Positions 15,929 to 56,645 of a DNA stretch of 64,000 bases are shown piece by piece. A program made the translations under genes and the position numbers. This DNA is from Squalus acanthias. Its lineage: Eukaryota. The notes beneath the pieces were generated by a model, which was given only the letters and a program-made list of their open reading frames with translations, did no database searches and was not told where the DNA came from. The stretch spans positions 32,986,001 to 33,050,000 of the forward strand of contig CM059432.1 in assembly GCA_030390025.1 (NCBI GenBank), read 5' to 3'. The number at the start of each line of letters is the position of its first letter. The stretch's first letter is position 1.

Positions 15929-17087
15929 CTAGAAGCGGCTTGCTATTAGTCGTTGACGGACGGCCCTTGCAGTTTGACCATTGTGGGCCGCCCTCCTGCC
16001 TTGGTGCTGCTGCTGATCATCGTCCTCGTCCTGTTCCTCCTCTTCCTCCTCCTCCTCTTGTGGTGCTGCAAGGCCTGGTGGCATTGGCTGCGTCCTGAGG
16101 ATTGCCATGTTGTGCAACATGCAGCACACGACTACGAATTTCGAAACTTGCTCAGGCGAGTACTGCAGGGCTCCTCCGGAATGGTCCAGACAGCGGAATC
16201 GTTGTTTCAGCACGCCGATTGTGCGCTCAATAATGTTCCTGGTTGCTTGTTGGCTTTCCTGGTACCGCAGCTCAGCAGGGGTGTTTGGCGCACGGAGCGG
16301 TGTCATCAGCCAGGTGCTCAATGCGTACCCCTTGTCCCCCAGAAGCCAACCAACTGGCTGATGCGGTGCCTCAAAGTTCTGCCACAGTAGTCTGGCGCAG
16401 GATGAAAGCATCGTGGCAGCTGCCCGGATAGTGGGCATTGACAGCGAGAATCACCTGTCTGTGGTCACAGACCAACTGCACATTCAAGGAATGGAACCCC
16501 TTTCTGTTCCGGAACTCCTCTGCATTCTCTCGCGGAGCACGCAAAGCCACATGCGTGCAGTCAATGGCGCCCTGCACCATGGGGAAGCCCGCTACCCTCG
16601 CAAAGCCCATAGCACGGTTATGCTGCTTGTCTGGGGTCATAGGGAAAGAGATGAAGTCTCGTCTCCTTCTGAAGAGGGCATTGGTGACCTGCCGGATGCA
16701 GCGATGCACCGCAAACTGGGAGATATTGGCGAGGTCCCCAACAGCAGCTTGGAATGAGCCAGTGGCGTAGAAGTTCAAAGCCACTGTGACCTTCACTGCC
16801 ACCGACAGAGACGTCCTGGACCTCAGCTGAGGCTGCAGATCTGGCTGCAGCAGGTGGCAGAGCTCAGTGACCACCTCCTTGCTGAATCGCAGCCTTCGCA
16901 AACACAGCTCCTCGGACATATGGATGTAGGAGAGCTGTTCACGATATACCCTGGGAGGGTAAGCTCTCCTGTACATGCGCCTGATGGCCCTCCTCCGTCT
17001 GGCCATCATTGCCACTCTCTGTCTGCGTCTCACTATCCTCCGATTGAGCTGGAGCAGGACGACGCCCCCAATCAGTGCAGCCCCCAT
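15929..17087 (-). CDS. Harbinger-A1 DDE transposase (HARBI1-like), split by a frameshift at ~16371
   Basis: [57 protein letters not shown]. Confidence 0.9.
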
Positions 17088-17186
17088 ATTCTCTTTGCCA
17101 GAAAAGTAATGAGGTACAGCAACTAAAGTAGCAGCAAAGTTAGGATGAACTAGACCAAACTACCTCACAAAGCGTTGTCAATGTAG

Positions 17187-17189
<3 letters not shown>

Positions 17190-17232
<43 letters not shown>

Positions 17233-17460
17233 ATCTCAATCTCAATCTCAATCTCAATCTCAATCTCAATCTCTCTCTCAATCTCTCTCTCTCCGAATCT
17301 CTCTCTCCGAATCTCTCTCTCCGAATCTCTCTCCGAATCTCTCTCTCTCTCTCTCTCAATCTCTCAATCTCTCTCTCTCTCAATCTCTCTCTCTCTCAAT
17401 CTCTCTCTCTCTCAATCTCTCTCTCTCTCAATCTCTCTCTCTCTCAATCTCTCTCTCTCT

Positions 17461-17514
<54 letters not shown>
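17190..17514. repeat. Compound (CT)n/(CAATCT)n microsatellite
   Basis: Directly visible. Confidence 0.98.
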
Positions 17515-17517
<3 letters not shown>

Positions 17518-17888
17518 AACGAGTGGTGCATAAATGTCGACCACAGAAAAAGACAGGAAGAGGCCCCCTTTAAATAGCGCCCCCCCCAGCCCCACACCGA
17601 TTGATAACGTTCCAGTCTTCCGGTCGTTGGAAGCGCCAGGCGGTAAGGCAGGGGGCGCCACTCAATTTCCGCTCCGGGGCACCCCAAGGGCGTTGCACCA
17701 TGGAATGACGTCACAATCTGCGCGCGCAGGTGTTCGCAGCGGTAAGTTTTAGCGCCGCCGCACAATCTCAAGTTAAGTTCTCGAGCGGCGCAAACAGCGC
17801 TGCGCCCGGGCGTTAGCGCCTTAACGCCCCATTAGCGCCCTCTTAAGGCGCTAACGGGAGGCGCAACCAACTGAATTTTTCCCCCCTT

Positions 17889-27397: not shown

Positions 27398-28715
27398 GTA
27401 GCAGCTTGCGAGACTTGGGTTCTGGTGCTCGGTCGGTATGGAGCAGGGTGAGTCTCCGTAGGACCTCTGCCGCGGTGTTACCCTCATTGTCTGGGTCAAA
27501 CCAATGAAGTGCCTTGACTAGGATCGAGGGCAGGCACTGACTGACCGGTGTCCGGAGCCAGTGGTTTAGAGGGCCATCCTGTAGTTGGAGGCGGGCCGCC
27601 ACCACTCCCTGGGCACAAATAGGAAGGCCAAAGTCGATCGGCGGTGAAAGCTTATGGGTGTTCCCCTGGCTTTTGTCCGGTATGGGAACATTCCAGGAAG
27701 GGGTTCCCTACTGACATGCCGAGAGCTTTCAAGATTGCCGCCTTCAAGCCGGCGGTAGTCCCCTGACCTGTCCCAGCCCCCCATATATCCCCGGATCGAG
27801 AGTAAATAACAATTTCCGATTTTCTTCCTCATCTAGGCCATGAATGCTGACAAATTGCGCAGCCATTAAGAAGGTGGTTTCGGACGATTGGCTGTATCTG
27901 GTAGATGGCAATTTCGTAGCAAGTTCCTGCAGTTGGCCCGTAGTGTGGGGACTCAAAGGTGCTTGCAAGTACTGGTTCGTCACCCTCATTCTGACCGGGG
28001 GTATAGTTTTGTTGCACAATCGATAGCATCGGGCTCGTCTGAGGGCCACCGGTTAAATGGAGGAGGGCGACTCTCGGTACATTGGATCCAGTCATCGGGT
28101 CCTTGTACCTCTCTCGTCCCGGATCTCGTTGGGCACTCGGCGCCGTTTTCAGCCTATTAATTTCTTGTTGACACTGAGGGCTGGATTTTGAATGACCCGT
28201 GGAGTCGGGTTTGGAGGCGTGTGGGGAGTTAAAGTAACAGATTCGGGGGTCCCGACCCCATCCCGACTCCATCCCGACTCCAACACGCCTCCACGCAATT
28301 TTGACAATCGGTCGCGGGGTTCCCGACTCCGTCCCGCCTCCAAGAGGCAGGAGAGGCTATTAAAGCCCTTAACAATCCCTAAAGTGGCTCAGTAATGCCA
28401 TTTTGAAGCATTTTATGTAGTTTAACCCTTTTCCCACGTGAAGCACGCCTGATGGGAAACACTCCAGTGAAACCTGGCGGGAGCACAAGTGGATTGCTGA
28501 CTCTCAGCTGCAGCTCAACCTTTAAATAGGAGATTTGATCAGCCACAATTGCAGGTGGCAGGACTTTGTTGTCACAGGTCTGGGGGAACTTTTAGAAGGC
28601 ATAACCACAGCTCTGGAAGTTTGGAGCCTGACACCCATCTGCAGTGTGACCTCCTGGGAACCCCCTCTCGCCACCCTCATTGACGGCTTCCTCAATTGAG
28701 ACAATTACCAGAGGC

Positions 28716-37355: not shown

Positions 37356-37714
37356 GGGGGAAAAATTAGGTCGCGCCCCATTTGGGGCGCAAATATCGTC
37401 TGGACGCAAATATTAGCGCCTGGCGCTAATTATCGCCACTGACTGGAAACTTCACTTTTACCGCCCCGGGAGGTGAGTGGAGCGCTAAATCAGGCACTGC
37501 ACACCTGTCTTAAGGCGCAAAGGCCGAGCAGTGAGGCGCTAACTCAGCGCGCGAGCGCAGCGCAACTGCTGCCAGTTAGCGAGGGAACACAGACACACTG
37601 GCGCCGGCCACTTCTTAAAGCGGGGGGGGCCAACTTGCTCCCCAGCCACACCCTGCTCATTGCAGCCTTGAATCTCGGCCTGGAGAGACCTGTGAATCCA
37701 TTTTGCTGCCAAGG

Positions 37715-39514
37715 ATGGAGAGGGTGAGAGAACGAGCTCATCGCTTCACCGAGCGGGCCTCGGATGCTCTGGTTGGCGCGGTGGAGCGCAGAAGATGTAT
37801 GCTGTTCCCTGAGAGTGGCAGGAGGCCTTTGCCACGCGAGTTCAGAAGAGTGTGGAGGGAGCTGGCTCAGAGCGTCTCCTCCAGGAGCATGGTGCCCAGG
37901 ACCCATGTTCAATGCAGCAAAAAGTTCAACGACCTCACTCGGGTCGTCAGGGTGAGTGGCTTTTTCTCAATACCTCTCCATCCCTCCATCTCAACCTCAC
38001 TCTATGGCCAGAGGGTCTTAAAACCCCAATGCACAACACTCATCCAACACCTATGGCCCTTTCATCAAACACACACACACATTCCAGACTTTGCATACAG
38101 TAAGGGCTATTCACCTATGGGAGGCACATCAGGCAAGACCATGGCTGCATACAGTAAGGGCTATTCACCTATGGGAGGCACATCAGGCAAGACCATGGCT
38201 GTATATTTACTCAGATGCTGTCCTTTTTCTTACAGGCCAAGCTGGCGCATAATCGGAGACAGCAGCAACGGACAGGTGGAGGGCGGCCTCAGCTGCAACC
38301 CCTCAGCGATCTTGAGCGCATCCACAGGATTGTGGCAAGCCGGGTGATCGGTCCCGTCGCCACTGGAGACGCCGACCCCGTTGTGGACAGCAATGGTAAG
38401 GTCATCACCTTTTTGTCCTCTGTCCTTCCACTTGTCCCTCACAACACCAGCCTTTGACACTTTCAATCCAACTTGCTAACTCGCTGCACTTATTCCTCCC
38501 TTACTGCCACCCTGTCCTCACGCTAAAGCCACTCTTGTACCTCCCTGCTTTCAGATGGTGATTCACCAGCTGAGGAGACGGGCCCTGAAGCTGCCACTGG
38601 GAGTGAAGCTGCAGCCGAGGAGGAAGAGGAAGCCGGAGCATCAGTGCCACCCTCTCCCGAGGAAGCCCATGCCCACACTGGGAACACGCCTTCCCTGGAG
38701 GGGAGCAGGGGGGAAGGGTCTGATGAGGGTGAAGCTCCAGGACCCAGCGGGCTGCAGCAACGCCATGGGGGTAGGGAAGAACGGGGGCCTTCTCCCCAGA
38801 GGGAGAGTATGCCAGACACTCCTACTGCAATGGACGCAGAGGAGGAGCGGCTGATTGCAGAAATGAACACCCAGGCGGTGGGCATGCACACTGAGCTCAT
38901 GGGTGCAGTGGGAAGGGTGCCCGAATGCATTGAGTCACTGGCAAGGAGTGTGGAGCACTTCGCTGTAGCACAGGTGGATGCCACACTAACGCTTAGTGCT
39001 GCAATTCAGTCACTGGCTGCCGTGATCCCATCTCTGACTGCTCTCATGCAGACTCAGATTGAGGCCACGCGAGCACAGACTGCTGTCAACCTCGATGGTT
39101 CGTGCACATGTCCCCGGGGCTGTCACCGCGCCGCAGCAGGCCAGCAATCTGTTCTCCGGCAGATTGCTCCGGATGCTGAAGTGCTGCCCCGTGGGAGTGC
39201 CAGTGTGTCGGGCGAGCAGGGAGTTGCTGTCCTCTCTCACGATGACAGAATTCCTGCTGCCAACACTGTCACTTCTCCACTGCACTTGCCACCGCCTGTA
39301 GGACAGACTGCTGCCGCCCATGCAGAGTTGGTGCAGTCTGCAGCCGGGCCCTCCAGGCCCAGAACTGGTCGAGGCCGTCCTTCAGGGGCATCTGCAGTGT
39401 CAGGGTCTGACGAGCAGCAGCCTTCCACCAGCCTTGCTGCAGCCACTGAGGTCCCATTACGGAGGAGCAGTAGGGTTAGAAGGGGGGAAGTGCGCAAGGG
39501 AAGGAGATCACCCT
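37715..39514 (+). CDS. Harbinger-A2 Myb/SANT-like gene (3 exons; extreme C-terminus interrupted by Gypsy-B)
   Basis: MERVRERAHRF...WRELAQSV..QCSKKFNDL; GT-AG introns; long open last exon. Confidence 0.75.
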
Positions 39515-42500
39515 TGTCGTAAGAATGAGCCTTACGCGTGGTGAACTTAAAGTAAGCTTTAATCAACTAAAAAGGTGCTCCATACAAAAGAGGTCTTACT
39601 CTATGCCTCTCCAGGATCCAACTGATCAGCCCAGTATTTATCCTGGACTAATCACAGGAAGTGATGTAATAAAGTTCGAGTCACAGGAAGCTGTATTGTG
39701 TTACCACATTCTCCCTCCATTTCGTAGCCGCTGGACGAGGGAGAGTCGCACCCGTTTGGGTTCTCGTAGCGGTAGAGGGCCCCTAGCCCGTTTACCCGCC
39801 GCGGGCCGTGGACCAGAGTCCGAGTGATCCAGCCCGCTCTGTGAGGGGTCAGGACGATCCTGACTGTGTACTGGTGCCCGAACGGGTGTCGGGCAGGGCT
39901 GTGGCAGATCCGTTTCCGAGCGTATGGTACGGGGTGGATCGTGGCTGCGCGTGCGAGTCCCGATGGGCTCATCGTCAGTCTGCCCCAGGTCGGCACGCTG
40001 GAGTGAGGTACCAGCCGGCGTCAGATCCAGATCGTGATGAGAGGCACCTGGCGAGCCCAGAGATGTGCCTGGTACAATATCATCCCCTGGTGTCCCTCTA
40101 TGTTTCGGCGGGCAGGGAGCCAGATCCCGCAATGACACGGTAGATTCCCGACCGTCAGGATACCGAATATAGGCGTAGGTAGGGTTGACGTCAGTGAGCT
40201 CAACCTCATCTACCAGGGGGTCATTCTTAGACGCCCGAACATATCTTCGGAGTAGCACTGGTCCCGGTGCAGTCAGCCATGACGGGAGAGATATCCCATA
40301 GGATGAGCGACGCTGAAAACGGAAGAACCGTTCATGAGGCGTCGTATTTGTGGCGGTCGAAAGGAGGGACCGTGTGGAGTGTAATGCGTCTGGAAGTACT
40401 GCTTCCCATTGCTGGTTGGGTAGGCCCCGAGATCTCAAAGCCAGACGTAACGCATTCCAGATGATAGCGTTAAAACGCTCGACTTGCCCATTCCCGACCG
40501 GATGATAAGGCGTCGTTCTGCTGGCAGCAATACCCCGTTCCGAGAGATAGGCCTTGAGTTCTCCTGACATAAAAGAAGGGCCCCGATCCGAATGAACATA
40601 GGATGCCATGCCACAGAAAGCAAATACCTGCTCAAGGCAGCTGATAACCGTGGTCGTCAGCATATTGGGGCAGGGAAAGGCAAATGGAAAATGGGAATAC
40701 TCATCGACCATGGTCAATAGATAAGTGTTGCGAGTTGAAGAGGGCAACGGCCCCTTAAAATCGATGCTAAGCCGTTGCATTGGCTGGGTCGCATGTATGA
40801 GTATACCACCCGAGGGGCGGAAAAACTGAGGTTTCAATTCCGCACAGACTCTGCAGTCCGAGCACATCTTCTTTACATCCCCGGTAGAGAATGGGAGATT
40901 TCGGGACCGCACGAAGTGTAGCATGCGAGTAACGCCCGGATGACACAACCCATCATGGATGTCTACGAGCGTAGAGGGTGCCATGGCGGAGCAGAATGCT
41001 CGTGTGAGGGTATCCGGAGCCACATTCTCCTTGCCAGGTCGATAGTGGATGGTGTAACCAAAAGAGGCCAATTCCAGCCGCCAAAGCTGGATTTTATTAT
41101 TTTTAATTTTGGTCCGTTTTCGATTATCGAGCATGAAGGCGACCGATCGCTGGTCCGTGATTAAGGTAAAGTGCTGGCGAGCTAGGAGATGACTCCACTT
41201 CCGTACTGCCTCTATGATGGCTGTAGCTTCTTTCTCGACTGGAGGATAATGTAGCTCAGCCCCTTGAAAAGTCCTGGACAAAAATGCCACCGGACGACCT
41301 TCCTGATTCAGAGTGGCCGAGATCGCCACCTCCGAGGCATCACACTCAACAACAAAAGGAAGACTCTCATCGATGGAGTGAAGAGCCGCTTTCTCCAACT
41401 GTTTTTTCAGGAGGTTAAAGGCTGCAACAGCCGCTGTGTCTAGTGGGAATGTGCTGGCCTTCAGTAGAGGTTGGATTCGGTCCGAGAAGTTAGGAATCCA
41501 TTTAGCATAGTATGCAAACAGGCCGAGGGCCCGGCGCAAGGAGGCCGGATTCTTAGGTGGCGGGAGTTCTTGGAGTGGGCGAAGCCTTTCAGGGTCAGGT
41601 TTAATGATGCCATTGCCCACACAATAGCCAAGGATGTTGATGGTTGGTTGTGACTCAATGGATTTAGCCGCATTTAATGTCAAATTACGGTGCTGGAGTG
41701 CATCCCAAAATCGTTGGAGATTGGCGTCATGTTCCCGCTGATTGCGACCTGCGACAGTAATATTGTCCAGATAAGGAAACGTATCCTTCAAGTCTTCCTG
41801 TTTGACCAGGTCATCCATTGCTCGCTGGAAGACAGCCACTCCATTAGTGACCCCAAAGGGGAGGCGACGAAATTGATACAGCCGTCCATTGGCTTCAAAG
41901 GCCGTATACTGCTTGTCTGAGACCTTCAAGGGTACCTGATGATAGGCACTTTTCAGATCATATGTTGAGAACACCGTGTACTCAGCCAGTTTATTAACCA
42001 TATCATCGATGCGCGGCAATGGGTATGCGTCCAAGTCCGTATATTGATTGATGGTCTGTGAATAGTCAATGCACAGCCGTTTCTTGTGAGGTTGTAGAGG
42101 GTTCTTAACAATAATGACCTGGGCGCGCCATGGCGACGAACAAGGCTCGATGATATCCTCTGCTAGAAGCCGAGAAATCTCAGCCGCAATAAAAGACTGG
42201 TCTTCCTGACTGAAACGTCGTGACTGTGTTATAATCGGTTTGCATCGAGGAGGGATACTGGTAAACAGTGAGGGTTCATCCAGTGAAGCTGCTGACAATG
42301 CACAGAACGGTAATCGAGGTCGTATATTAGAAATAGTGAGTTCAGGTTTGGATCCGCCGAACTCAATGGTGAGCTTCTTATGCTGCTTTTGAAAATCCAG
42401 CCCTCAGATAAGATCACTACATAAGTCCTTGAGCACCGAAAGCCGGGTGAAGGGATACCTGTGACCATTAAGTGTTATTTCAACCATACAAAAGCCAGAA

Positions 42501-43922
42501 ATTCTGGTATTAAGTGATGACTGAGCCATCGCAATTGCCTGGTCCGATGGGAAAACATGTAGCTTTAACTCTGCAACAATCTGTTCCCTAATGAAACTAT
42601 CAGTGCTACCTGAGTCAATTAAGGCATCTAAAGTATGTCCATTAATTGATGCTTTTGTAGCTGCATGGAATAGGTTCTGAGGACAAGCAGCTGTAATTGG
42701 TGGTGGTGCACAAAGAGTGGCTGAAACTCTAGGTGTGTTTCTTCGAGAGAAAACCCGAGAGGAAGCACGATAGATTTTAGCCGGAACATCTTGATAGGCC
42801 CGTACCGGGGCAGTTCGGTAGGACTTAGCTTGATAAGCCCTCGTAGAGGCTCTTGATAGGCAAACTTTTGCAAAATGACCCTTTTTGTTGCAATGACTGC
42901 AAAACGCATTGTGAGCAGGGCAGAATTTCCGAGGGTGAAACTCATCACCACAAAAGAAGCATTTCTTAGATTGCCAAGAGGCTGCCACAGTGGGGTCATC
43001 ATCCTCTTCATCAGTGAAGTCATTAGATTGATCGTCGGGGATAAAGTCCTCCTAATAGAGTTCACCTGTGGCCTCTTAAATTGCCTGACTGTAGTTAAGG
43101 CAGCAGACCGAGGTCTGGGCACTGTATAAAGGTCTGCATTTCTTTTTGCCAGATCTAGAGAGCAAGCCATGTCATAAGCTCTCTGAAGCTCAAGTGTCTT
43201 ACTTTCCAGTAGACGCTGGCGTATAAATGGGGAGGCAAGCCCGCAGATGAAAGCATCATGGATCATTTCTTCACGGTACAGCTCAGCTGAGGCCGCCTGA
43301 AAGTTACAGTCCATACTAAGTCTGCGAAGCTCTTGGAGGAATTTATCAATGGATTCCTCCGGCCCTTGTTGGGCTGCAGCTAGTAGATGTCTGGCATAGA
43401 CCTCATTCGGTGTCTTAGTATATAGTCTTTTAAGCGTCCGAATTGCCTTCTCGTAACTGCCCCATTCCTCGACATACTGAAATACATTCGGGGTGACACA
43501 GTTGATGAGTATCCGCAATTTTGAGTCATCATCAGCCTTGCAATATTCGAGAAAATTGTCAAACGTGCGATACCAGTGTTTCCACACCTTACCGGCTGCT
43601 GGGGTGTTTGGGTCCAAGTCAAGACGCGATGGTTTAAGGATGTTTTCCATGATGGGTGATTCCCTGGATCCTTAGTTCCGAGTTCGTCCAAAAAGTTTGA
43701 GTGCGAAGTTTTTCAAAGTTGATTAAATTGTCGTAAGAATGAGCCTTACGCGTGGTGAACTTAAAGTAAGCTTTAATCAACTAAAAAGGTGCTACATACA
43801 AAAGAGGTCTTACTCTATGCCTCTCCAGGATCCAACTGATCAGCCCAGTATTTATCCTGGACTAATCACAGGAAGTGATGTAATAAAGTTTGAGTCACAG
43901 GAAGCTGTATTGTGTTACCACA
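39515..43922 (-). mobile_element. Gypsy-B: full-length Ty3/Gypsy element, same lineage as Gypsy-A
   Basis: 194-bp LTRs (39515-39708, 43729-43922) differing at 2 positions; TSD ACCCT. Confidence 0.97.
39701..43650 (-). pseudogene. gag-pol: Gypsy-B gag-pol (frameshift near 43050, stop at 42404; RT-RNase H-IN open for 865 aa)
   Basis: MENILKPSRLDLDPN, CSHCNKKGHFAKVC, LIDSGS, YLDN, IDFKGP. Confidence 0.92.
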
Positions 43923-44236
43923 ACCCTCGAAGGGCAAAAAGTAGGAGGTGTGACCAAATGCTGGTCATTTTTTTATTAAAGGTCGAGATTCATGGTCCAA
44001 CTTTTGTTTAGTGTTTTGGACATTATCTACAGGTTGTGAGAACCAGTTATGTTATTGACTTTTTTTGTGTTTATTTCTATGAGTTTGTCATGAGGAATTG
44101 ACACACACACAGTTTGAAAAATAAATAAGTTTCTGTATTCAAAATATACATGGCTGGTGGTTGGAATTATTGGTGCCTTGGCCGGCTTAGGGGTTGCGTG
44201 CTGGGTTGATTAATGTTGGTAGCAATGGCAGGGGCC

Positions 44237-45398
44237 CTAGAAGCGGCTTGCTATTAGCCGTTGACGGACGGCCCTTGCAGTTTGACCATTGTGGGCCGCC
44301 CTCCCGCCTTGGTGCTGCTGATGATCATCGTCCTCGTCCTCTTCCTCCTCTTCTTCCTCCTCCTCCTCTGGTGGTGCTACAAGGCCTGGTGGCATTGGCT
44401 TGGTCCTGAGGATTGCCATGTTGTGCAACATGCAGCACACGACTACAAAGTTCGATACTTGCTCAGGCGAGTACTGCAGGGCTCCTCCGGAATGGTCCAG
44501 ACAGCGGAACCGTTGTTTCAGCACGCCGATTGTGCGCTCAATAATGTTCCTGGTTGCTTGATGGCTTTCATTGTACCGCAGCTCAGCAGGGGTGTTTGGC
44601 GTACGGAGCGGTGTCATCAGCCAGGTGCTCAATGCGTACCCCTTGTCCCCCAGAAGCCAACCAACTGGCTGATGCGGTGCCTCAAAGTTCTGCCACAGTA
44701 GTCTGGCGCAGGATAAAAGCAGCGTGGCAGCTGCCAGGATAGTGGGCATTGACGGCGAGTATCAGCTGTCTGTGGTCACAGACCAACTGGACATTCAAGG
44801 AATGGAACCCCTTTCTGTTCCTGAATTCCTCTGCATTCTCACGCAGAGCACGCAAAGCCACATGCGTGCAGTCAATGGCGCCCTGCACCATGGGGAAGCC
44901 CGCTACCCTCGCAAAGCCCAGAGCGCGGTCACGCTGCTCGTCTGGGGTCATAGGGAAAGAGATGAACTCTCGTCTCCTTCTGAAGAGGGCATTTGTGACC
45001 TGCCGGATGCAGCGATGCACCGCGAACTGGGAGATATTGGCGAGGTCCCCAACAGCAGCTTGGAATGAGCCAGTGGCGTAGAAGTTCAAAGCCACTGTGA
45101 CCTTCACTGCCACCGACAGAGACGTCCTGGACCTCAGTTGAGGCTGCAGATCTGGCTGCAGCAGGTGGCAGAGCTCAGTGACCACCTCCTTGCTGAATCG
45201 CAGCCTTCGCAAACACAGCTCCTCGGACATATGGATGTCGGAGAGCTGTTCACGATATACCCTGGGAGGGTAAGCTCTCCTGTACATGCGCCTGATGGCC
45301 CTCCTCCGTCTGGCCATCATTGCCACTCTCTCTCTGCGTCTCTGTATCCTCCGATTCAGCTGGAGCAGGACGACGCCCCCAATCAGTGCAGCCCCCAT
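44237..45398 (-). CDS. Harbinger-A2 transposase, same frameshift as A1 (~44682)
   Basis: Same motifs as A1; PGSCHD changed to PGSCHA. Confidence 0.88.
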
Positions 45399-45498
45399 AT
45401 TCTCTTTGCAAGAAAAGTAATGAGGGACAGCAACTAAAGTAGCAACAAAGTTAGGATGAATAGGCAAAACTACCTCACAAAGCGTTGAGTCAATGTAG

Positions 45499-45559
<61 letters not shown>

Positions 45560-46028
45560 AACGAGTGGTGCATAAATGTCGACCACAGAAAAAGACAGGA
45601 AGAGGCCCCCTTTAAATAGCGCCCCCCCCAGCCCCACAGCGATTGATAGCGTTCCAGTCTTCCGGTCGTTGGAAGCGCCAGACGGTAAGGCAGGGGGCGC
45701 CACTCAATTTCCGCTCCGGGGCGCCCCAAGGGCGTTGCACCATGGAATGACGTCATAATCTGCGCGCGCAGGTGGTCGCAGCGGTAAGTTTTAGCGCCGC
45801 CGCACAATCTCTAGTTAAGTTCTCGAGCGGCGCAAACATCGCTGCGCCCGGGCGTTAGCGGCTTTGCGCCCCATTAGCGCCCTCTTAAGGCGCTAACGGG
45901 AGGCGCAACCAACTGAATTTTTACCCCGTAGAGTTCCAAACTTAATTACAGTTTCTAAGAAAAATCACGATCGATTACAACACTTCCGAGGCGCACGTGG
46001 AAAACGGGAGTGACGCCATTTTGTCTGT

Positions 46029-48380
46029 TTACGCGGTGCTTTCATCGTGCACGCGCACGTAACGTTCTCGCCACTCTCCCGTGTTTTCGTTCTTGGTGAG
46101 GCGTTTGCCTCTCTTACAATGCACGACCAATAAGTATATCACAATAAACACTTGGCATACAACTAAAATGTGGGAGGCTATTCTAATCCAGGAAGGCACT
46201 TCAATGTTGGTGAACAGATTCCACCACGGTGGAATTACTATGTCCAGAATTTCTGTCCCTATCTCGACAGTCTTTTGTTCTAGGGTGTAAAAATGTTTTT
46301 GCGATACCGCGACGGCTTTCAAAAGCTTGGTGAGGTGTTCAGGGAGAGGGGGAATGAGGTATCCGAAATGCGCGACGAATCGCTGCAGGTCGGTGAAGTT
46401 CTCTTTTACGGTAAGATGAACCGTGGATGGTTCAGGGATTGGGACAATTCGCTGTTGTGCTACTTGAACTTCCGTCCTGGGTTTGAAACAGAAACTGCTG
46501 TCACTCACCGGACACCGGCTACGGTTTCCATGTTGGTAGTGTTGCGCTGCAGTGGTAACACAATATGTTCCACCCCCGATGTATGCTACCTGCGGAGGCA
46601 CATGATCTTGTGCCATTGCCTCCATGGTGCAATTCATGGGCTTGGCGCCAGCCGTTCTGAACCCGCACTGTGGTGTTAAAAAGGCATTCAAGTGCTGGGG
46701 ACACAGTATTATGTGTGCTCCCCGGCCACGACAACCAGAGAGATCTGTACCTGTCATCGTTTGCTCCCAGCGGATGACGTAAGGTGGAACCGCTGCACAG
46801 CGAATGTGGGCTCCCCCCTGAATGACACCAATGTTCTCTACCCGATACACCGGGGCGGGCTTTGTTGTGTCGCCCAAAACCGGCATACGTAATACTATAC
46901 CCATGATGGTATGGTTTGATCGTCCGCAGTCCACGGGGACTGGGTATGCTTCTGAAGCTAGTCTGAGCTGGCACGGGTTTAATGCGTTCTGAAAAGGGTG
47001 GAGCGCCTGCAGGTGTTTGTTACTTATCCAGGACGGGACCAAACCTTGTTTTAAATCCTCCAAATTACTGCGGCCCTCGCCCAGTAACCACGCCCCGTAA
47101 AGCACGCACACCTCATTCTGCGCAGCCTGATCGGACGCATTCCGATCTTCCCTAATCAGGGCATTGACCGTACGCGCATGTTTCTCTAGTTCGGCTATTA
47201 TTTCTTTTAAATGGAGAGTCATGGCCTGGTCCTCGTGTAACCCAGACCCAACCACCTTATTTTCATCTGTGAGAATGCTTTTTAATTGCGTTTTTAAGCC
47301 ATTAATCTGGGTCTGCAGCTCCACGCTGTCTAGAGCGTTGACCACAGATGTACCTGTATTGAAAGCAGTGAACACGTCGTTCACAACACCCCTTCTTTGC
47401 CTCCCCACCTGACCCAAAACTTCATGTGGTGCGGTGTACAAACTTGTTTTATCAATTTCCGCGAAATCGAACTCATAAAATTGTCTAAACATCTTGGTCA
47501 ACAGGACCTGATATAACTGTTCCGTCTTTTTGGGGCACCACTCTGGTAACCGCACCTCGGTGAGATTTAAAATCACCGAGGCCACCGCGTAATGTACCCC
47601 CTGAAATAGTATCTGGTCTGTGGGGACCAGTATCAAACCATTCCCGGGTCCCTTACTGGTTTTAGGGCACCCTTCTTCCTTCGCTAGAACCACCGGAATC
47701 GTGGGCGGGGCTTTGCGTGGGCGCGTAATGAGTTCAGTGGCATTTACCGGGATCAGAGAGTATGGGGCTCCGCACCCACTGGTGCTCGCATCCCACCTCA
47801 TCCCCTGTCCGTTATCCTGCCATTGATTGATGAAAAATATGGAGATGCCTTTGGGGCAAACGTGCTTTGACCCCCACATACATACATAAATTCCCTCATC
47901 CGGTTCCCACCATTTGTCCCAACAGACTCTCACTTGTCCGTTTGTCCCCGTAATTGTCCGATGGGTATTATTACCCAGTCGCTCCCACTCGACCGAAGAG
48001 TTCCTCATGTTTTTGCTCAGCTTTCGTAGCCACCACCATCGGCTCAATGGGACATTCCCAGTACAAGTCAAACAAATTCGTTTGCCGACGGTGACGCTGA
48101 CTCTGGGTGCGATGATCCTTACTTTGGGGCACATTAAAGAAGTCTCTTTGTAGGCAAAACCCGATGTACTGGAATACTCAGTTGAATTTGTTCCCAGCCA
48201 TCCTGGCCACCTTCCCTTGTGGAAATAGGTGGTGGTCTCCTCAGCCTCTCGCCTTCCGGTCCCATCCACCGCGATGGGGGCCGTGTCCCCGGAGCATCCA
48301 AACACCACGACATCCTTGGTGCGGCCTCGATAGGCCAATCCACATCCGATTGCCGCGAGCAATACTAGAATTCGTTCCAT
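46029..48380 (-). CDS. env: Envelope glycoprotein, 783 aa from Met 48380, class I fusion protein
   Basis: Signal peptide MERILVLLAAIGCGLA; furin site RQRR (47391-47402) followed by a fusion-peptide/heptad region; Cys-rich ectodomain; TM ~46125-46190; candidate splice acceptor CAG at 48394-48396. Confidence 0.9.
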   Translation of the reverse strand: MERILVLLAAIGCGLAYRGRTKDVVVFGCSGDTAPIAVDGTGRREAEETTTYFHKGRWPGWLGTNSTEYSSTSGFAYKETSLMCPKVRIIAPRVSVTVGKRICLTCTGNVPLSRWWWLRKLSKNMRNSSVEWERLGNNTHRTITGTNGQVRVCWDKWWEPDEGIYVCMWGSKHVCPKGISIFFINQWQDNGQGMRWDASTSGCGAPYSLIPVNATELITRPRKAPPTIPVVLAKEEGCPKTSKGPGNGLILVPTDQILFQGVHYAVASVILNLTEVRLPEWCPKKTEQLYQVLLTKMFRQFYEFDFAEIDKTSLYTAPHEVLGQVGRQRRGVVNDVFTAFNTGTSVVNALDSVELQTQINGLKTQLKSILTDENKVVGSGLHEDQAMTLHLKEIIAELEKHARTVNALIREDRNASDQAAQNEVCVLYGAWLLGEGRSNLEDLKQGLVPSWISNKHLQALHPFQNALNPCQLRLASEAYPVPVDCGRSNHTIMGIVLRMPVLGDTTKPAPVYRVENIGVIQGGAHIRCAAVPPYVIRWEQTMTGTDLSGCRGRGAHIILCPQHLNAFLTPQCGFRTAGAKPMNCTMEAMAQDHVPPQVAYIGGGTYCVTTAAQHYQHGNRSRCPVSDSSFCFKPRTEVQVAQQRIVPIPEPSTVHLTVKENFTDLQRFVAHFGYLIPPLPEHLTKLLKAVAVSQKHFYTLEQKTVEIGTEILDIVIPPWWNLFTNIEVPSWIRIASHILVVCQVFIVIYLLVVHCKRGKRLTKNENTGEWRERYVRVHDESTA

Positions 48381-48687
48381 CCTTCCTTGGTTCCTGTGAT
48401 CAGATAGAATGAGGTAGCCAGCCTCCCAAGAGTCTCTGGCTTTTGTGAAGGGTGAGCGGGTCCCCTGACCTCGCCTCACGTAAGAAGACATGTGCGCTGG
48501 ATAGACTTTAACTATTCCTATCTCTAAAAACTCCCATCATTTTACCTCTTTCTGTTAAACAAAATTAAACTACCGACTTAGCCCGATTTAAAACTATAAA
48601 CTTATAAACCTGATTTAAAACTATAATCTTATAAACTCATCCTACACTTATCACTGTACAGCGCCGCCCGTTCCCAGGGCGGCCTAC

Positions 48688-49370
48688 TCAAATTCTGCGG
48701 TCGCTGCCGCAGGCTTCTCCCAACGGTGGGAGGGCATTGACCCCTCCCTTTGATCTGCCGCAGCCTGTTGCTGCTGCGCTGCGACTGGACTCTCCCTGGG
48801 CTGCCTTAGCCTTGAACCTACGCCTTGGGACACTCTGGGGACTTGACCATATCTTCCTGGGCTGGGGTATCCGACTTGACCTACGGAGAGCTACCGGGGG
48901 CAGGAACTCCAGGACCGACGGACCGGGTTCCGAGACTTCCACCGTTGCGACCTGTGGTCCTACCACAGCCGCTGGCTCCGCCTCCCCTGACTCCGCCTCC
49001 CTGAACTCGGGATCTGCAGCTTGTGTCACCGCCCTACTTGGCCCAGTAGGCGGCCCTTCACTCGCAGTCCCTACCTCCCTCGAGGGCAAGACGTTCAAGG
49101 CGGGCGGCTCGGGCTCTGAGGCTTCCATCGCCACGCCCTGTGGTCCCACCACAGCGGCTGGCTCCACCTCCCCTAGCTCCGCCCCCCTGCGTTCGGGACC
49201 TGCAGCTTCGGCCTCCACCCTGTGGATCTCTATCTGCAGCCCCTGTCTCCCCTATACCTGAATCGGGGGCGACCCTTTCGTCCTCCGATTCCAGCTCCTC
49301 CTCGCTTGTGTCACTATCTTCGTCGAGCTCCTCGAACTCTTCCTCATCTGACTCCCAACCCCAATAAAAT
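48688..49370 (-). other. Acidic, low-complexity coding stretch between integrase and env
   Basis: ESDEEEFEELDEDSD..., duplicated EPAAVVGPQ unit, LRRSSRIPQPR; frames broken. Confidence 0.5.
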
Positions 49371-49375
49371 ATCTC

Positions 49376-52300
49376 TCATTTTTCTAGGATGTCCTCTCCC
49401 CTGATGCAAGCTACTTTGCCCGCCTGTGGCCCTATCTGGGGCTGCGAGTCCCCACTCGCAGGTTTGGCCCCTGTGGTAGGCCCTTGTGCGCCCGGCTTAT
49501 ACAGTTTGCACTGATTTACATGGAACCACTTAGTGCGCCGAGGTACCTTTACGGCGTATACCATGGGGCTCGCCTTATCTACAATGCTGTAGGGTCCCAT
49601 ATACAGTGGTTCCAGACTCCCTACTCTGGCGTAGTTTCTGACCATGACCTGGTCTCCTACTTCCCACTCCCGCTTTTTGCGGGGTTCCAGCAACAGGCGA
49701 TTGCCCTGATGCTGCCTTCCCATGTTCCCAGCCGCCTGCTCATAAACCTGCTTCAGGCGCTCCAAGAGGGTCTGGACGAACTTGTCCCTGCTTACCTCTT
49801 GGAGCTGACCTTCAGTGAGCACCGGCGCCAGCACATGGGTGGGGGTTCGCATGATCCTCCCAGTCATCACCTCGTGCGGGGAATACCCCGTACTTTTCGA
49901 CTGACTGGCCCGGACCCCCATGAGGACTAGAGGCAGAACCTCCGCCCATTTTTGGGGCGAGTTCATAGTCTCTTTCCTCAATTTCTCCTTCAGGGTCCGG
50001 TTCATGCGTTCAACAATCCCGGATGACTGGGGATTGTGCGCTACGTGCCATTTCCCTTCAGTGCCCAAAAGCATGAGGGTGTTCTGCATCACCTGGCCGG
50101 TGAAATGACTCCCTTGGTCTGACTCCACAAAACGGGGAAGTCCCCACCGCGAGAACACTTCCCAGACCAAGATTTTTGCAGTACCCAGTGCCGTAGCTGT
50201 TCTGCAGGGGAAGGCTTCCACCCATTTGGAAAACACATCCACCAAGACGAGGCAGTATTTATAGCCTCCCTGGGTGGTGGGCAGGGGCCCTATATAGTCG
50301 ACCTGTATCGACTGCCATGGTCCCTCTTCCCTCCTGATGTGCCCCATGGGCACTTTCCTTTTCTGGGGGTCTGGGTTGTTTGCAGCGCACACGAGACAGC
50401 TTGCACAGAACTCGCGGACCTGCTCCCTGAGCCCCGGCCACCATCCCGCTTGCTCTACCCGTTGCCAGGTAACCTCGGGCCCGGGGTGCCCTGCCCCCGG
50501 TCCCTCGTGAGCCAACTGGATGAATTCCCTCCTGTGCTGCTGCGGCACAACCCACTGCTCCTCGCGGAACAGCATGCCTTCCTTAACGGAGAGGGTTGCC
50601 GTACTGTACGGACCCTCTACCTGCTTCCCCTCAGCAAGGGTTCTGAGGACTGCTTTTAGGGCGGGATCCTGGTTCTGGACGGTCTTAAGGTCTAGGGGCA
50701 ATGCTACCCTGGTGTTCCCGGGATTCCCGTCCCTGCCTTGGATCGCTGCCACGGGTCTGGGCCCATAGGGGTCCCAGAAAATGCCGTTACGGGCACCCTC
50801 CCTGGCTAGCGCATCCGCCTGCTGGTTGCCCTCCCCACGGGGCTCTGTGGAGGAGTGAGCCTTCACCTTATGGATGAAAATCTCCCCTTCCTCCCCTACT
50901 GCTGCTAGGATCTTTTCCAGCAAGGGCTTCACCGTTAAAGGTCGTCCGTCCGCGGAGGTGTATCCACGGCGGGACCAAATGGCCAGGTATTCCGTACACG
51001 AATTGCATGTGAGCAAATAGTGTATGGGGTTGGGAAAGTTTCTGGGTGGGTAACGACGTACACCACTGCAGACAGCTCAGCCTGCTGCGCGCTCATGGTG
51101 CTGGGGAGCCTAATCGCCAGGGCAAGGTTTGCCGCAGGGTCATAAACTCCACGCCCTGTGAGTCGTTCGCCAGCGGACACTGTGCTGGAACCATCAACAT
51201 AAATCTCGCGCCCAGTGGGATGTATCCCGGCTCGCAAACCTATGTTGACTTCCCACACCCCTTCCACCGAACACTGGTGGGCTGTACCGGGGTATACCAA
51301 ATTGGCCGCAAGCCTGGGCTCGCAAAGACCTTTAACTCTAAGATCCATCTGGGAAAGAAGAAGGGTCCAGCGCGCAATACGCACGCTGCTTACGGTCCCA
51401 TCTTTAATCCTCCCATCTAGAAGCATTTTAGTTGGTGTGTGATGGGTGAGGAGAGTGATGGGGGAGAGCCCTGTGAAGATCGCTGATCTTTTCACAGCCC
51501 AATGCTAAAAGGTGCCTTTCGCAATTGGAGAAACTTCTCTCCACATCCGTTAACACCCTGGCCGAATAGACAACCGGTCTCAGCTTGCCGTGACGCTCTT
51601 GGAGCAGCACAGCGCTCAAGCTGTCCCCACTGGCAGCTACCTCCAGGAAAAACTCCTTCCCCCCATCTATGGCCCCTAAAGCTGGCGCGGTCTGCAAATC
51701 CCTTTTTAACTTCTCGAAGGCTGCCTGGCATCCCTCGTCCCAAGACCACTCCACTCCCTTATGGAGGAGTCGGAGCAGCGGCGCCGCTGTGGCTGCATAG
51801 TCTTCGATAAAATCCCTGCAGTAACCGGTCAGTCCCAAAAAGGACCTCACACCCCTTATGGTGTTGGGAATCGGTAGCTCTTGCACCGACTCCCTCCTAG
51901 CCTTATCTATGGCTCTTTCCCCAGCGCGAATGGTCAGCCCCAGGAATTTTACTTCCTGCTGACCGATACGTGCTTTCTTAGGGTTCACTTTAAAACCCTT
52001 TCTCGCTAGCAGCTCCAATAACTCGGCCAGCAGTGGTCCATGCTCCTCCCTTGAATCCGTAAATAGGAGCAAATCATCCACGTACTGCACTATCTGATTG
52101 GGCTGACTAAACTCCTTTAAACTTCCTGCCATACACTGATGGAAAATACTGGGGCTGTTGTGGAAACCCTGTGGCAGACAGTTCCATGTGTACTGTTGTC
52201 CTTTGAAAGTAAAGGCAAACTTGTACTGGTCCTCTCGCCGCAGCGGGATGGACCAAAAAACGTTCGAGATATCCAGCACCGTGAACGTGGTCGCGGACGC

Positions 52301-53149
52301 TGGGATACTCCCTATTAGGTCAGCGACTGCTGCTACCGTGGGCGCGCAGGCGGGAATGTTACCGTTAAGGACTCTGTAGTCCACCGTGGCCCTCCACGAT
52401 TTATCCGGCTTCCTAACCGGCCATAATGGGGAGTTCACGTGTGTGGCTATCGGCCTCAACACGCCCTGCTGCACCAAGGAGGACATTGCTGTCTCCATGT
52501 CGGGTTCTGCTTCTTTGGGGAAGTTATACTGCTTTTGGGGCCGGGTCATGGGGTCCCCATCTATGCTGACCTCAAACCCGGTAACCCTCCCACAATCGTG
52601 CTTGTGGGTTACAAACGCGTGCATATTATCTGACACGTACGTTTGCATGTCCGTTGGGACATCCGCGACCATAAGCCCGAGGTCGTAGCCTCCGGATGGC
52701 TTCATGGTACACAGGGCCCCTTCACCTTCCTCCCCCGGAATTACCACTACCTCGCCTTCTTCACCCTTAGCCCCCCAGAGGCAGTGATTCCTGAGGTCCA
52801 CGAGGATCCCGTGCCCCGATAGGAGGTCTGATCCGAGGATGCCTCTCCCACCCCCCTCTTGCCATTTCATCAGTATGCACTTCCACGTGGTGCGGGGTGT
52901 TCCTAAATGAATGGATAGCGGAATGGAGAACGCGCCAGCCTGCTCTTTTCCCGTGAACCCCGCTAATGTGAATGGGACCTTGGTAGATAGCGGTGAGTCA
53001 AAAGGGCTATCCGTATGAATCACGGTGCATGAAGCTCCCGTGTCCAACAAATAACTACCCTTCTGTTCTTCTACCTCCATCTCCACCAGGGGTCGCTTCC
53101 ACGCATCATAGCTGAGCGGACACAGGTAGACGGGCTGTGCGGGCTCTAG
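49376..53149 (-). pseudogene. pol: pol: protease-RT-tether RNase H-RNase H-integrase, two frameshifts (~51500, ~51016)
   Basis: LLDTGAS; YVDD; LEVAAS..RPVVYS..ERHLLA; IYVDGS..AQQAEL..KVKAH..GNQQADALA; HHCC; VDYIGP, SDQG, GIVER; GPY. Confidence 0.92.
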
Positions 53150-54947
53150 TCATTGGGTACTATTGGACGGGGCTGCGGCATCTGCGGGGCCGGTAGCAAC
53201 CGCCACCCTTCCATGCGAACTCATGAGGGTGCGCATGGCTCCCAACACTGATTCGATCGCATCGGGATGGATAGGTGCACTAGCTCCCCTATCGGAGACA
53301 GGCGCCTGGGCTCGGACTGCGGGATTTTTATCCCTGGACTCCTTCCAAGGGTTCCTGCAGTTCTTGCGCCAATGCCCTGTCTTCCCACACCCGTAACAAG
53401 CATTACTGGCCTGCGGGGCGCGGTTACCCTCCTGATGCCACTCCTTTTGAGCCGGGGCTGCGGGTCGTGCCTCATGCACCTTTCCCTTAAGGGGACGTGC
53501 TCCCGTACTCCTGGTATTACGGTACCCTACCGTGAGTCGATTTAGGACCGACTCCTCTGTAGTGGCGGGGTTAGTGGGATCAAACCACGCTTTTGCCTGC
53601 TCCCTGACGGCTGGCAAACTGTTGGTTACTATACACTTGAGCCAATGAGTTAAACTGGCATCGTCTATGCGCTGGCGCGCCTGGGCAGCTACGCTGGTAT
53701 ACTGGCCACAGCCTGTCGGCGAAAACCTTCGGGGGTTCTCCCTCCATCTGCACTGTTCGTCCCAATCTAATGAACGGACCTTCATCGTCCATTCCCAACA
53801 CTTCTAGGACCTCATCTCTTAGCTCCCCATAGGTATTAATTCCCCTCTTGCTCTCGTCTGAGAGACACTGAAGGATCGAGCTGTCTAATGAGAATAACAG
53901 CATTTTTGCTTTTTCCCCATCGTCGCAGCCGTTAATGGCTGCGGTTTGCTCTACTTCCCTGAAATGTACGGAAGGGTCGTCTGACTCGGCCAGCTTCCGT
54001 ACGTGACTGATCATAACCCTCAGCTGGTGTGAGCTGTGAGGCAACACAAGCTGGTTGAGGAGATCCCCCTCTTCCCCACCTGCTCCGTTCGGGCCCCTCT
54101 TGATACCCGTGACCGGACACAACGGTCCCGGCTTCACTTCTACCTCAGTGGGCTCTTTCTCTACTTCTACCACTTCCTCCCTCACCCAGGTTGCCGAATA
54201 GCTGGGTGGCGCGGAGGGCACAGTGGCTAATACCTCCTCTGCTTTGTTCGGTGGGGATTTCTGAAATCCCTCATCCACTAGCGGCTGGTGTGCTGACGGG
54301 CTGATAAGGCACACCATGCCGTGCGCTTTGTTCAAGGCCCTTTTAAGGTTCCCTATCTCTTTTTGGCAGACACTGTGATCGGCCCCCTGAAGTTTATCCT
54401 CGAGGGCCATCTTATATGCCGCCCTAACCCCCGTTAAGCTCTCTTCCTGGGCTTTTATTTGGGCAGCTAGGCGGGCACATCGTTCCTTTAATCTGCCCTC
54501 ATTTAACTTTGCCTCAGTGACCTGGCACTCGAGGTAATCTATTTTCGCCTCATGGTGGTTGGCGACTAACTGCCGTTCTTGATGCAACGCATTTAAAGTC
54601 GCGATGAGCTGCTGCCCCCCCCGCGACCTTCTCGTCCATTTCCACCTCTAAACTCTTGATCTGAGCTGCCTGCGCTAAGATGACCTGGTCCGAAATTTGG
54701 ACTTGTCTTTTATAGCACATCAGCCAGACCGCTTTCTCCACTTTTTTTATGTTCCTTGCTTATCTGTCCACCTCTCGGCTGCCTCTAGTGGACGCTTATC
54801 CACCAGCAGGTCACTTATCCATTTCTTGGTCAAATTCACTTTTCCAAACACATAATCTGCTATTCTCTCTTCCATGACATTTCGCCCATTCATACCAGGG
54901 TCTAACACATTATTTTCTCGCTGCCAGTGTCCTGCCGCGGTCGCCAT
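53150..54947 (-). pseudogene. gag: gag with coiled-coil N-terminus and one CCHC knuckle, about three frameshifts
   Basis: CYGCGKTGHWRKNC; consecutive ORFs 54747-54947, 54550-54741, 53580-54587 and 53150-53785 change frame. Confidence 0.85.
54929..54946 (-). promoter_or_regulatory. Primer-binding site, tRNA-Arg(UCG)-type
   Basis: TGGCGACCGCGGCAGGAC, complementary to GTCCTGCCGCGGTCGCCA (recalled vertebrate tRNA-Arg-TCG 3' end). Confidence 0.8.
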
Positions 54948-54951
54948 TTTC

Positions 54952-56645
54952 TGTTAGGGGTGAGACCTGTGGCTCTGTGCTTAGCCTGGGTGCTAGTGCG
55001 AGGTTAGGCCTTGTTGCCTGTTCTGGTCTCCAGCCAGCCTGGTAACACTAGACACCTGTGAGTGGTTCGACCCACTCGCCCTTACGGTTCTGACACTGGA
55101 CTTAGGTGCGAGAGCAATAATGCAGAGAAAACTCAGGTAGACCCGGTTGAATAGTGCAAAATGGAAAATCTTTATTGCATATTATTCAAGATTACGAAAT
55201 ACATGTCATAAGCACAGATTAATGACAGTACAATCTTACACGCAGTTATGTAACTAATTTTTGGGAAACGAGGAGCGCACGACACATCGAAAAAGGGGGC
55301 ACACATTACAATTATCCTTAAAACTTAAACCCTCCCCTATCAATACCTGTCCTAAACTAGATTTGTAGGATCGAGACTCATGCTCACCACTCGTGATAAC
55401 TCGGAGAATTCCGAAACTCTGCTCGGATGTTTTTCCTGCAGCACCTGACCACCCACGTGTTGATCAGGGGTCTCTGTACCCCACTTGTTTACTCGTCTCT
55501 GCTCCGGCTAGCAGGCTGGACCGTCTGCTGTCATGAAGATCTGTGTTGTCCTCGGAGTTCCGACACTACTCAAAAAAGAGTCTTCCTGTGCCCTCACACC
55601 GATGCGATAAAATTCGAAGAATGGTCTTCCTGGGCAAGAAAAAGGTGTTTATTCGACTTGCAGGCGCGGTCGGAGCTTACTGACCGTGGCGATACGTATT
55701 GTCGTCGTCGTCTTCTTCTCTCATCTCTATCTCTCCCTCTCCCTCTCCCTCTCCCTCTCCCTCTCCCTCATCCCTCATCCCTCATCCCTCATCCCTCATC
55801 CCTCATCCCTCTCCCTCATCCCTCGTTCCAACACCGTTTACCGACTTCTCGGGATGGTGTGCCCGTTTCAAGGCCTCACAGCCCAGTTCTTCACAGATCT
55901 TCGCGGCAAGCCACGAGGTTGATCCTGGTGGATCAGAAAGTTCAATAGTCTTCCAGCAAGTCAAACAGCAAGAGCTGCAAGAGGCAGAGGCACGAGGCAA
56001 GAGGCAAGAGCAAGAGACAGATGGACGGTTGTACCTTAGTTATAGTGCTGTAATTCCTCTTTTCCCGCCCAATCTTAATGTCTTTCTTTTGTCAGGGTTT
56101 TGGCGCTCAAACTTCTTGTATAGGGTGATCTCCGTTTAATGGGTTTCGGTGATACTTGTAACTGTCTGAGTACCCGTTAATACTTCTCCCATTGTGGAAC
56201 CGGTCAGTATTCTCCCTGGAGGGGTTTTGGGGCTGCCAAATGCTTTCTGTAACTACCCGCAAACGGCTCTCTCATCGTAGAGTCGTGGGGATTTTGCATA
56301 TTAATGTCTTTGGATGGGTTCTTGATCGCTCGGTACAATAGCCCTTATTCGCACCTGGGAGACCGACTCCAGTATTTATGCATAAAATGCAAACCCATTA
56401 TGTCTTGTCAATTATCTCAAATGTGCTGAGTCTTGTCCGATCTCGCACAAATGTTTATTGGAACGCCATCTTGTCTGCTCATTGAAAAGTCTAGAACGTT
56501 CTGCCACGAGGCGTGGCGGCCATTTTACAGGCTGTTTGTGTCCACTTTGAAAACCTGACAGCATTCTGCTGAAATAAAGCTGTTTGTACGAAACTTTATG
56601 TCTCCTCTTATTTTATAAAATCGTGATAATTTTGCGAATTCTACA
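54952..56645 (-). repeat. Long (~1.7 kb) 5' LTR of the provirus
   Basis: TGTTA...CTACA ends; abuts the PBS on one side and Penelope RT on the other; minus-strand AATAAA ~55172; internal (CCCTCT)/(CCCTCAT) repeats 55730-55825. No second LTR to confirm boundaries. Confidence 0.65.

Follow-up and report, generated by a model that had tools for sequence, protein, structure and literature searches.

Lokiretroviruses are defined by the position of their reverse transcriptase (RT), and Wang and Han found them in none of six chondrichthyan genomes (PMC7947760). They also proposed that env was gained independently by lokiretroviruses and canonical retroviruses, preferring independent origins because the Envs of the two groups showed no similarity (PMC9040795). 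Endogenous retroviruses (ERVs) related to snakehead retrovirus (SnRV) are known from the elephant shark, including CmiERV lineage I (Han 2015, PMC4422223), and cartilaginous fish have many class III ERVs (PMC11089739). A cryo-EM study demonstrated that foamy virus Env shares the core of the fusion (F) proteins (PMC11468914). In the present work, we analysed 64,000 nucleotides of Squalus acanthias contig CM059432.1 (the window), whose minus strand carries a provirus that a preliminary description had taken for a near-complete chondrichthyan lokiretrovirus. We conclude with good confidence that this provirus is dead and truncated at its 3' end, one copy of a class III ERV that was amplified recently, likely belongs to cartilaginous fish, likely stands near SnRV and likely has an F-like Env with an immunoglobulin (Ig)-like N-terminal domain.

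The class III assignment rests on the RT. Lokiretrovirus (Loki) rows were chosen by eye, by comparing fetched proteins with the motifs of the published alignment (PMC7947760): P0105, which by eye agrees almost letter for letter with the published Loki-Lca row, and five other proteins carry Loki RT motifs, and five rows were used as Loki. P0128 is the SnRV row of that alignment, and P0156 is named WEHV-1. After 13 of the 208 RT matches had been dropped for short RT coverage, trees were built from 196 rows (FastTree) and 70 rows, together with two careful trees of hand-picked 37 and 40 rows. Both careful trees put the window RT inside canonical Retroviridae with support of 100/98, while the Loki rows form a separate clade (100/99 with 37 rows, 100/100 with 40); the 70-row and 196-row trees also place the window RT inside canonical retroviruses. 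The approximately unbiased (AU) test rejects a grouping of the window and P0004 with Loki (p=0.002) as well as one of the window clade with Loki (p=0.004). By eye, the window RT has the motifs LPQGF and QYVDD; the published Loki rows are of the PFG[YL] and [IV]YVDD type. The nearest named RTs are those of frog and coelacanth elements, at about 50% identity, which group with the window at 96/85 (37 rows) and 82/82 (40 rows), and sister families in the S. acanthias genome are 58-88% identical to the window RT; three loci of this genome that bore a Gypsy label in the 40-row set belong to the window clade. Judged by its RT, the element belongs to class III, where its relatives come from frog and coelacanth.

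A position near SnRV is likely, and a sister relation is possible: SnRV joins the window clade in the FastTree run at 0.95 (196 rows), and the AU test does not reject this grouping (p=0.255). Two points weigh against our reading. The grouping is absent from both careful trees (37 and 40 rows), and the trees were drawn without Odin, class II and exogenous foamy RTs, for the last of which a foamy-like ERV of the S. acanthias genome stood in. Other assignments fit less well. The class I clade (100/98) excludes the window RT in both careful trees and class I Env motifs are absent, which speaks against a gamma- or epsilonretrovirus; a spumaretrovirus would not be expected to show the zf-CCHC that is present here, PF03408 is absent, and the RT is not sister to the foamy-like RT of the same genome in the careful trees. 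Odin retrotransposons, with an RT sister to Loki and a dual RNase H, have no env and this element has one, and neither an RT inside Metaviridae nor a single active RNase H, as in Ty3/Gypsy elements or errantiviruses, was found. The preliminary description had agreed beforehand to give up the lokiretrovirus if the RT fell inside Gypsy or epsilon/spuma clades; in substance this is what happened, the RT lying in class III near SnRV rather than with epsilon or spuma viruses. When the S. acanthias genome was searched with a Loki query, the best matches reached 33-36% and all eight loci read (of 53) were window-type, which does not show absence. The window RT had no match among viral contigs and phage records, and a metagenome scan gave 18 loci, of which those tested had no related env.

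Pfam recognises protease, RT (E 3e-35), integrase and zf-CCHC, along with RT_RNaseH_2 (E 4e-18) and a further RNase H that is split in two, and the best PDB matches of the RT are the retroviral RT/RNase H p80 and foamy Pr125Pol (174-201 bits), with Ty3 at 131-135. The degenerate Gypsy-type RNase H followed by a retroviral-type RNase H, as described earlier, is therefore real (RT_RNaseH_2 and RNase_H in Pfam), and its motifs all lie on the minus strand (LEVAAS 51646-51629, YVDGS 51201-51187, AEL 51087-51073, GNQQAD 50830-50813). It was also held that a dual RNase H and an F-like Env define lokiretroviruses, and this does not stand: SnRV carries the same tether and RNase H, and foamy Env shares the F core (PMC11468914). 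All retroviruses share the dual RNase H; it occurs in SnRV too and is not diagnostic for lokiretroviruses.

The Env is likely an F-like class I fusion protein of the paramyxovirus and foamy type, as judged from profiles and a language-model search. It contains 24 cysteines, 10 sequons and, at residue 734, a single strongly hydrophobic segment, and on the minus strand an Ig-like domain (48128-47880), a furin-type RQRR (47402-47391) and a transmembrane segment (46181-46125), with a predicted heptad region and a cysteine-rich region. The Env motifs listed previously were all recovered on this strand (RQRR|GVVNDVF 47402-47370, VLRMPVL 46895, VYRVENIG 46850, VPPYV 46790, TDLSGC 46748, ILCP 46709). 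The window Env was searched for CX6CC and an LQNR/LDLL-type motif and neither was found, in agreement with the statement that gamma-type Env motifs are missing. For the N-terminal domain, 20 of 22 PDB matches belong by name to the Ig superfamily (best E 5e-4), and Ig_3 appears below the Pfam cut-off in six of seven Env family members. The only database homologues of this Env come from a skate and a sawshark; the chondrichthyan half of the original identification therefore likely holds, and the lokiretrovirus half fails on the RT. In the sawshark, the gene models P0002 and P0003 show Env pieces fused to Niban-like and zinc-finger models, which are either prediction artefacts or exonised env.

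Several searches point to F. A protein language-model search (Atlas) linked the window Env, at 0.92-0.94, to clusters named Baculo_F, Gypsy env and Fusion_gly, and the SnRV Env to the same cluster types at 0.93-0.95, on a scale where 4-10% of shuffled proteins yield first matches of at least 0.9. PF00523, run over the genome, gave three weak matches, one of which is the Env family of the window element; a family member matches it at E=0.086 (hmmscan) in the beta-rich core, positions 248-360. A profile built from 16 natural Env fragments was compared by hhalign, with 120 shuffles and reversed controls. It scored 45.2 with SnRV, 43.5 with walleye dermal sarcoma virus (WDSV), as well as 40.3 with one foamy-like Env, against 18±3 for the shuffles (maximum 28.5, n=120) and 16-24 for the reversed controls. 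The WDSV Env (L070:5962-9648) can be aligned with the family along some 190 columns, in which the cysteines match, and the epsilonretrovirus Env may be F-like too. The published Loki-Xtr Env, with which the window Env agrees in layout by eye, points the same way. The same Env family also stands beside two other RT lineages in the S. acanthias genome.

Other results count against an F-like Env and must be set beside these. The hhalign probabilities are 31-57%, and three of the four foamy-like env loci fall inside the shuffle range. The window Env has no Pfam F match at E<=1; a PDB sequence search and three profile searches found neither an F protein nor foamy Env; and the pairwise comparison of the window and SnRV Envs was non-significant (50 vs 44±5), as was local HMM scoring. 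AlphaFold models were unusable, with a predicted local distance difference test score (pLDDT) of 33 for the window Env (5-row alignment) and 40 for the SnRV Env (single sequence), and a viral fold search with the window Env model gave no match at E<=0.001. The proposed resemblance to the F1 of Mononegavirales thus survives as likely on language-model and profile grounds, without a significant Pfam or PDB match to F. As for related searches, the SnRV Env had no match in the S. acanthias genome. PF12259 gave 15 weak matches over the genome, none above the cut-off and each lying in the model's C-terminal part; two of the ten fetched belong to the Env family of the window element, a weak indication. 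The foamy-like ERVs of the genome (L014-L025) have 11 PF03408 env matches above the cut-off and a distinct RT.

If the element were a true lokiretrovirus, it would be new, the first from cartilaginous fish, since none was found in the six chondrichthyan genomes of Wang and Han. The tether and second RNase H seen by Pfam would fit, the window Env and the Loki-Xtr Env of the published set (PMC7947760) look colinear, and the integrase is 41-43% identical to Loki integrases vs 35% to that of SnRV and groups with Loki, weakly, at 61/80. We nevertheless regard this as very improbable, as the RT, by which the group is defined, is placed outside Loki by all four trees and by the AU tests and agrees in its motifs with the retroviral rows of the published alignment, and as the dual RNase H and the F core both occur outside Loki. 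The integrase likeness also weighs on our own placement. Another possibility is a recombinant, in which a class III RT was joined in an aquatic host by an env, and perhaps an integrase, swapped with lokiretroviruses, so that the F-like Env would be a lateral gain rather than ancestral. Loki nests weakly among the window clade in the integrase tree (in which CGIN1 was not included; a lokiretrovirus integrase would be expected close to CGIN1/NYNRIN), and Env and Pol are often incongruent in the ERVs of fish and amphibians (10.1101/2021.11.23.469661). However, canonical integrase monophyly is not rejected (p=0.187), and the RNase H tree, in which P0004 stood in for the window and foamy rows fell to the filter, gave no resolved grouping; a lokiretrovirus RNase H would be expected in group I beside those of foamy viruses. 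Several exchanges would also be needed, considering that related Envs occur in SnRV, WDSV, a foamy-like ERV and two other RT lineages of the genome; we thus consider recombination unlikely, though a serious competitor.

A further alternative keeps the class III ERV and denies the F relationship: the Env would be a divergent class I fusogen whose likeness to F comes from generic features, namely a basic cleavage site, heptads, cysteines and a membrane anchor. The absence of a significant Pfam or PDB match to F would be explained, weak GP41 matches occur in four of the 16 Env family members (best E 0.045), and the chance rate of the Atlas search given above allows for it. Against this, about 400 residues of cysteine-rich ectodomain follow the cleavage site, which fits F1 and not the transmembrane subunit of gamma or beta type; the family match to PF00523 lies in the beta-rich core, and the link to a foamy-like Env exceeds the shuffles. 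We hold an unrelated fusogen to be rather improbable, and a class III ERV with a likely F-like Env remains the reading we favour.

The window copy itself reads, on the minus strand, from 5' long terminal repeat (LTR) through tRNA-Arg primer site, gag and pol to env, with the following features (all minus strand):
54952..56645, 5' LTR, about 1.69 kb, TG...CA, AATAAA at 55176 (genome-wide match edges; both ends of other copies)
54929..54946, primer-binding site, tRNA-Arg(TCG), 5 nt past the LTR CA (tRNA complement matches, ARAGORN)
53150..54947, gag, with a likely coiled coil and a single CCHC zinc knuckle at 53398-53357 (Pfam and sequence)
53146..53152, gag stop TGA then CTAG, in frame with pol, a likely site of readthrough (comparison with copies)
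51743..53149, pol, comprising protease (53101-52808) and reverse transcriptase (with YVDD at 52084-52073) (Pfam, PDB matches)
51349..51742, tether (RNase H of Ty3 type, degenerate), with a frameshift near 51500 (Pfam RT_RNaseH_2 and RT_RNaseH)
50792..51207, retroviral-type RNase H, interrupted by a frameshift near 51000-51050 (Pfam RNase_H, matched in two frames)
49499..50548, integrase with HHCC, core and SH3-like C-terminal domain (Pfam; best PDB match foamy integrase)
48688..49498, Pol C-terminal tail, long, low-complexity, with an internal repeat (open reading frames, copies)
46029..48380, env, open, 783 residues, likely F-like class I fusogen (open reading frame, profiles, language-model search)
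45928..46028, remnant of the 3' untranslated region (comparison with copies)
43923..45927, end of a Harbinger-type DNA transposon (DDE_Tnp_4), outside the provirus and abutting the cut (sequence comparison)

The span 45928..56645 given in the preliminary description has true element edges at both ends: 56645 is the first TG of the LTR, where genome-wide matches also end, and at 45928 the element is cut off next to the Harbinger transposon. To call the copy near-complete was an overstatement. The whole 3' LTR and about 345 bp of internal sequence are absent and were found nowhere else in the window, a search for paired LTRs within it gave none, and both gag and pol are broken. There are at least two breaks in gag (near 54650 and near 53670) and four in pol, and env is the sole open gene; the Pol tail has a stop near 49377 and a frame change near 49220, is open in some other copies and is retained in copies that lack pol. 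Since the element is cut at 45928, the polypurine tract and 3' LTR are missing; a GGGG at 45927 was considered as the polypurine tract and rejected, as it belongs to the terminal repeat of the transposon. The two flanks of the Harbinger-type end do not match each other, which suggests a deletion, and the 3' end was probably lost by deletion at this transposon. The copy is thus dead, 3'-truncated and unable to replicate. The canonical layout of LTR, primer site, gag, protease, RT, tether, RNase H, integrase, env, polypurine tract and LTR can be followed in the window as far as env, and its remainder, the purine tract and 3' LTR, is present in other copies.

Those copies were sought across the 3.7 Gb genome, with 3672 (env) and 2363 (RT) first-look candidates that are not copy numbers. 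The best 40 env matches are 99% identical and the best 40 RT matches 98-99%, that is, at least 40 copies stand at each of these levels. Ten top env matches, a choice biased to young copies, were taken and nine viewed end to end: five are full length, four lack the segment from protease to integrase and keep env, and env is open in five of the nine. One of the five full-length copies has no break in any gene. Between the paired LTRs of seven copies, the divergence is 0.12-0.73% (uncorrected; two copies, one with a neighbouring inverted copy and one with a nested insertion, were left out of the dating). This corresponds to 0.3-1.7 million years at 2.2e-9 per site per year and to 3-17 million years at one tenth of that rate, as assumed for sharks (PMC4422223). 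Target duplications of 4 bp are exact in four of these seven copies, carry one mismatch in two and are lacking in one, which abuts the end of another copy. The family is young and recently amplified. Contigs from sequencing runs of four organisms, whose status as RNA is a guess, cover all 30 element bins at 85% or more.

The complement of the primer site occurs at 426 places in the genome, against none for the control, and ARAGORN calls tRNA-Arg(TCG) in both genomic loci scanned. A second primer-site variant, matching another tRNA-Arg(TCG) gene, is carried by six of seven copies, as would be expected if the site is recopied from the primer tRNA. Long tandem arrays of a 1623-bp unit with tRNA-Arg(TCG) lie at G000:C26:38.99-42.2 Mb, with the 426 matches counted genome-wide; the scanned locus also has tRNA-Ser(GCT). 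Five bases lie between the LTR CA and the primer site (54951-54945, minus strand) in the window and in all seven copies, where the usual spacing is 1-3 bases, and by coordinates this spacer creates an ATG in the gag frame that overlaps the start of the primer site. TGA CTAG closes gag, with pol in frame, in the window and in eight of nine other copies, the ninth having TGA CTG; UGA-CUA is a type II readthrough context (PMC13517186). The subfamily without pol (L026, L028, L030, L036) keeps both LTRs, gag and env, and its members share a filler of about 240 bp, 85-95% alike, which encodes a predicted coiled coil. The filler is in frame with the Pol C-terminal tail and open for 357-372 residues in three of the four copies, and a Gag-readthrough product with its own function is possible.

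Considering these features together, we propose that the family replicated as an ordinary retrovirus, with transcription from the LTR and integration with a 4-bp duplication. Pol would be made by readthrough of UGA-CUA-G, and reverse transcription would be primed by tRNA-Arg. Cleavage by furin at RQRR would split Env into an outer subunit with the Ig domain and a fusion subunit resembling F1, and entry would proceed through this cleaved F-like Env, the Ig domain being the likely binding module. As many copies have retained an open env, the family probably spread for the most part by reinfecting the germ line. The copies that have lost pol but still carry gag and env would depend for their mobility on Pol supplied in trans.

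Among described viruses, SnRV shares with the element an RT inside canonical Retroviridae (38% identity over RT and tether), the tether and RNase H, a coiled-coil CCHC gag, a gag stop with pol in frame and a non-gamma Env with detectable profile similarity; its primer site is also tRNA-Arg. The two differ in Env length (783 residues in the window, 1134 in SnRV, stop to stop) and gag stop (UGA vs UAG), and the element has a 1.7-kb LTR, a long Pol tail, an apparently different integrase type and, in the surviving stretch of the window copy, no open reading frame past env. By its description, CmiERV lineage I stands with SnRV among the nearest described elements. Lokiretroviruses resemble the element in dual RNase H, a likely F-like Env with a basic cleavage site, a possibly similar integrase type and a long LTR. 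However, the window RT lies outside their clade, its Env lacks a significant PF00523 match (2e-7 in the published Loki case) and has the extra Ig-like N-terminal domain, and a stop separates gag and pol. Foamy viruses share the class III RT neighbourhood, the best PDB integrase match and likely a class Ib F-like Env core (PMC11468914), whereas the element has a CCHC gag, in-frame gag-pol and no PF03408 match; the foamy-like ERVs of S. acanthias are a separate lineage, with 35% RT identity to the window. WDSV is alike in its Env profile and in gag-pol readthrough, and unlike in its class I RT.

Other elements surround the provirus. An older integrase fragment of the window clade, about 70% identical, lies at 8980-9650 (minus strand), and a distant gag-like remnant, 28% identical to the family Gag, at 27444-27950 (minus strand). 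The Harbinger-type transposon has two copies in the window, 95-97% alike (37356-45927 and 13459-17885), the former containing a Gypsy element with 195-bp LTRs (39514-39708, 43728-43922), and the same transposon family is found in or beside two other provirus copies.

The locus itself is ordinary, since SnRV-related ERVs of cartilaginous fish are known (PMC4422223) and the copy is dead. Its interest lies in the Env. Viro3D expects further F-like cases in Retroviridae, and walleye and snakehead viruses are not mentioned in its text (PMC12583693). An anamniote Env survey sought gamma and beta types only (10.1101/2021.11.23.469661), and in our literature search, whose coverage excluded most subscription journals, no description of an F-like Env in SnRV-related ERVs or WDSV was found. 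An F-like Env probably does not define lokiretroviruses, and the present data suggest that more retroviruses have an envelope of this type than had been assumed. A canonical RT joined to a likely F-like Env, with profile links to SnRV, WDSV and a foamy-like Env, challenges the premise of independent origins. We tentatively raise the possibility, itself somewhat doubtful, that an F-like (class Ib) Env is ancestral and homologous in lokiretroviruses, foamy viruses, SnRV, walleye epsilonretroviruses and the class III lineage of shark, frog and coelacanth, with gamma and beta Envs as later replacements. If so, the independent-origins scenario (PMC9040795) would be overturned, and the class III lineage would contribute an integrase of Loki type and, for receptor binding, an Ig domain that it had captured. 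Being young and numerous, with open env, the family offers natural Env sequence for structure work; with structures, the origin of retroviral env becomes testable.

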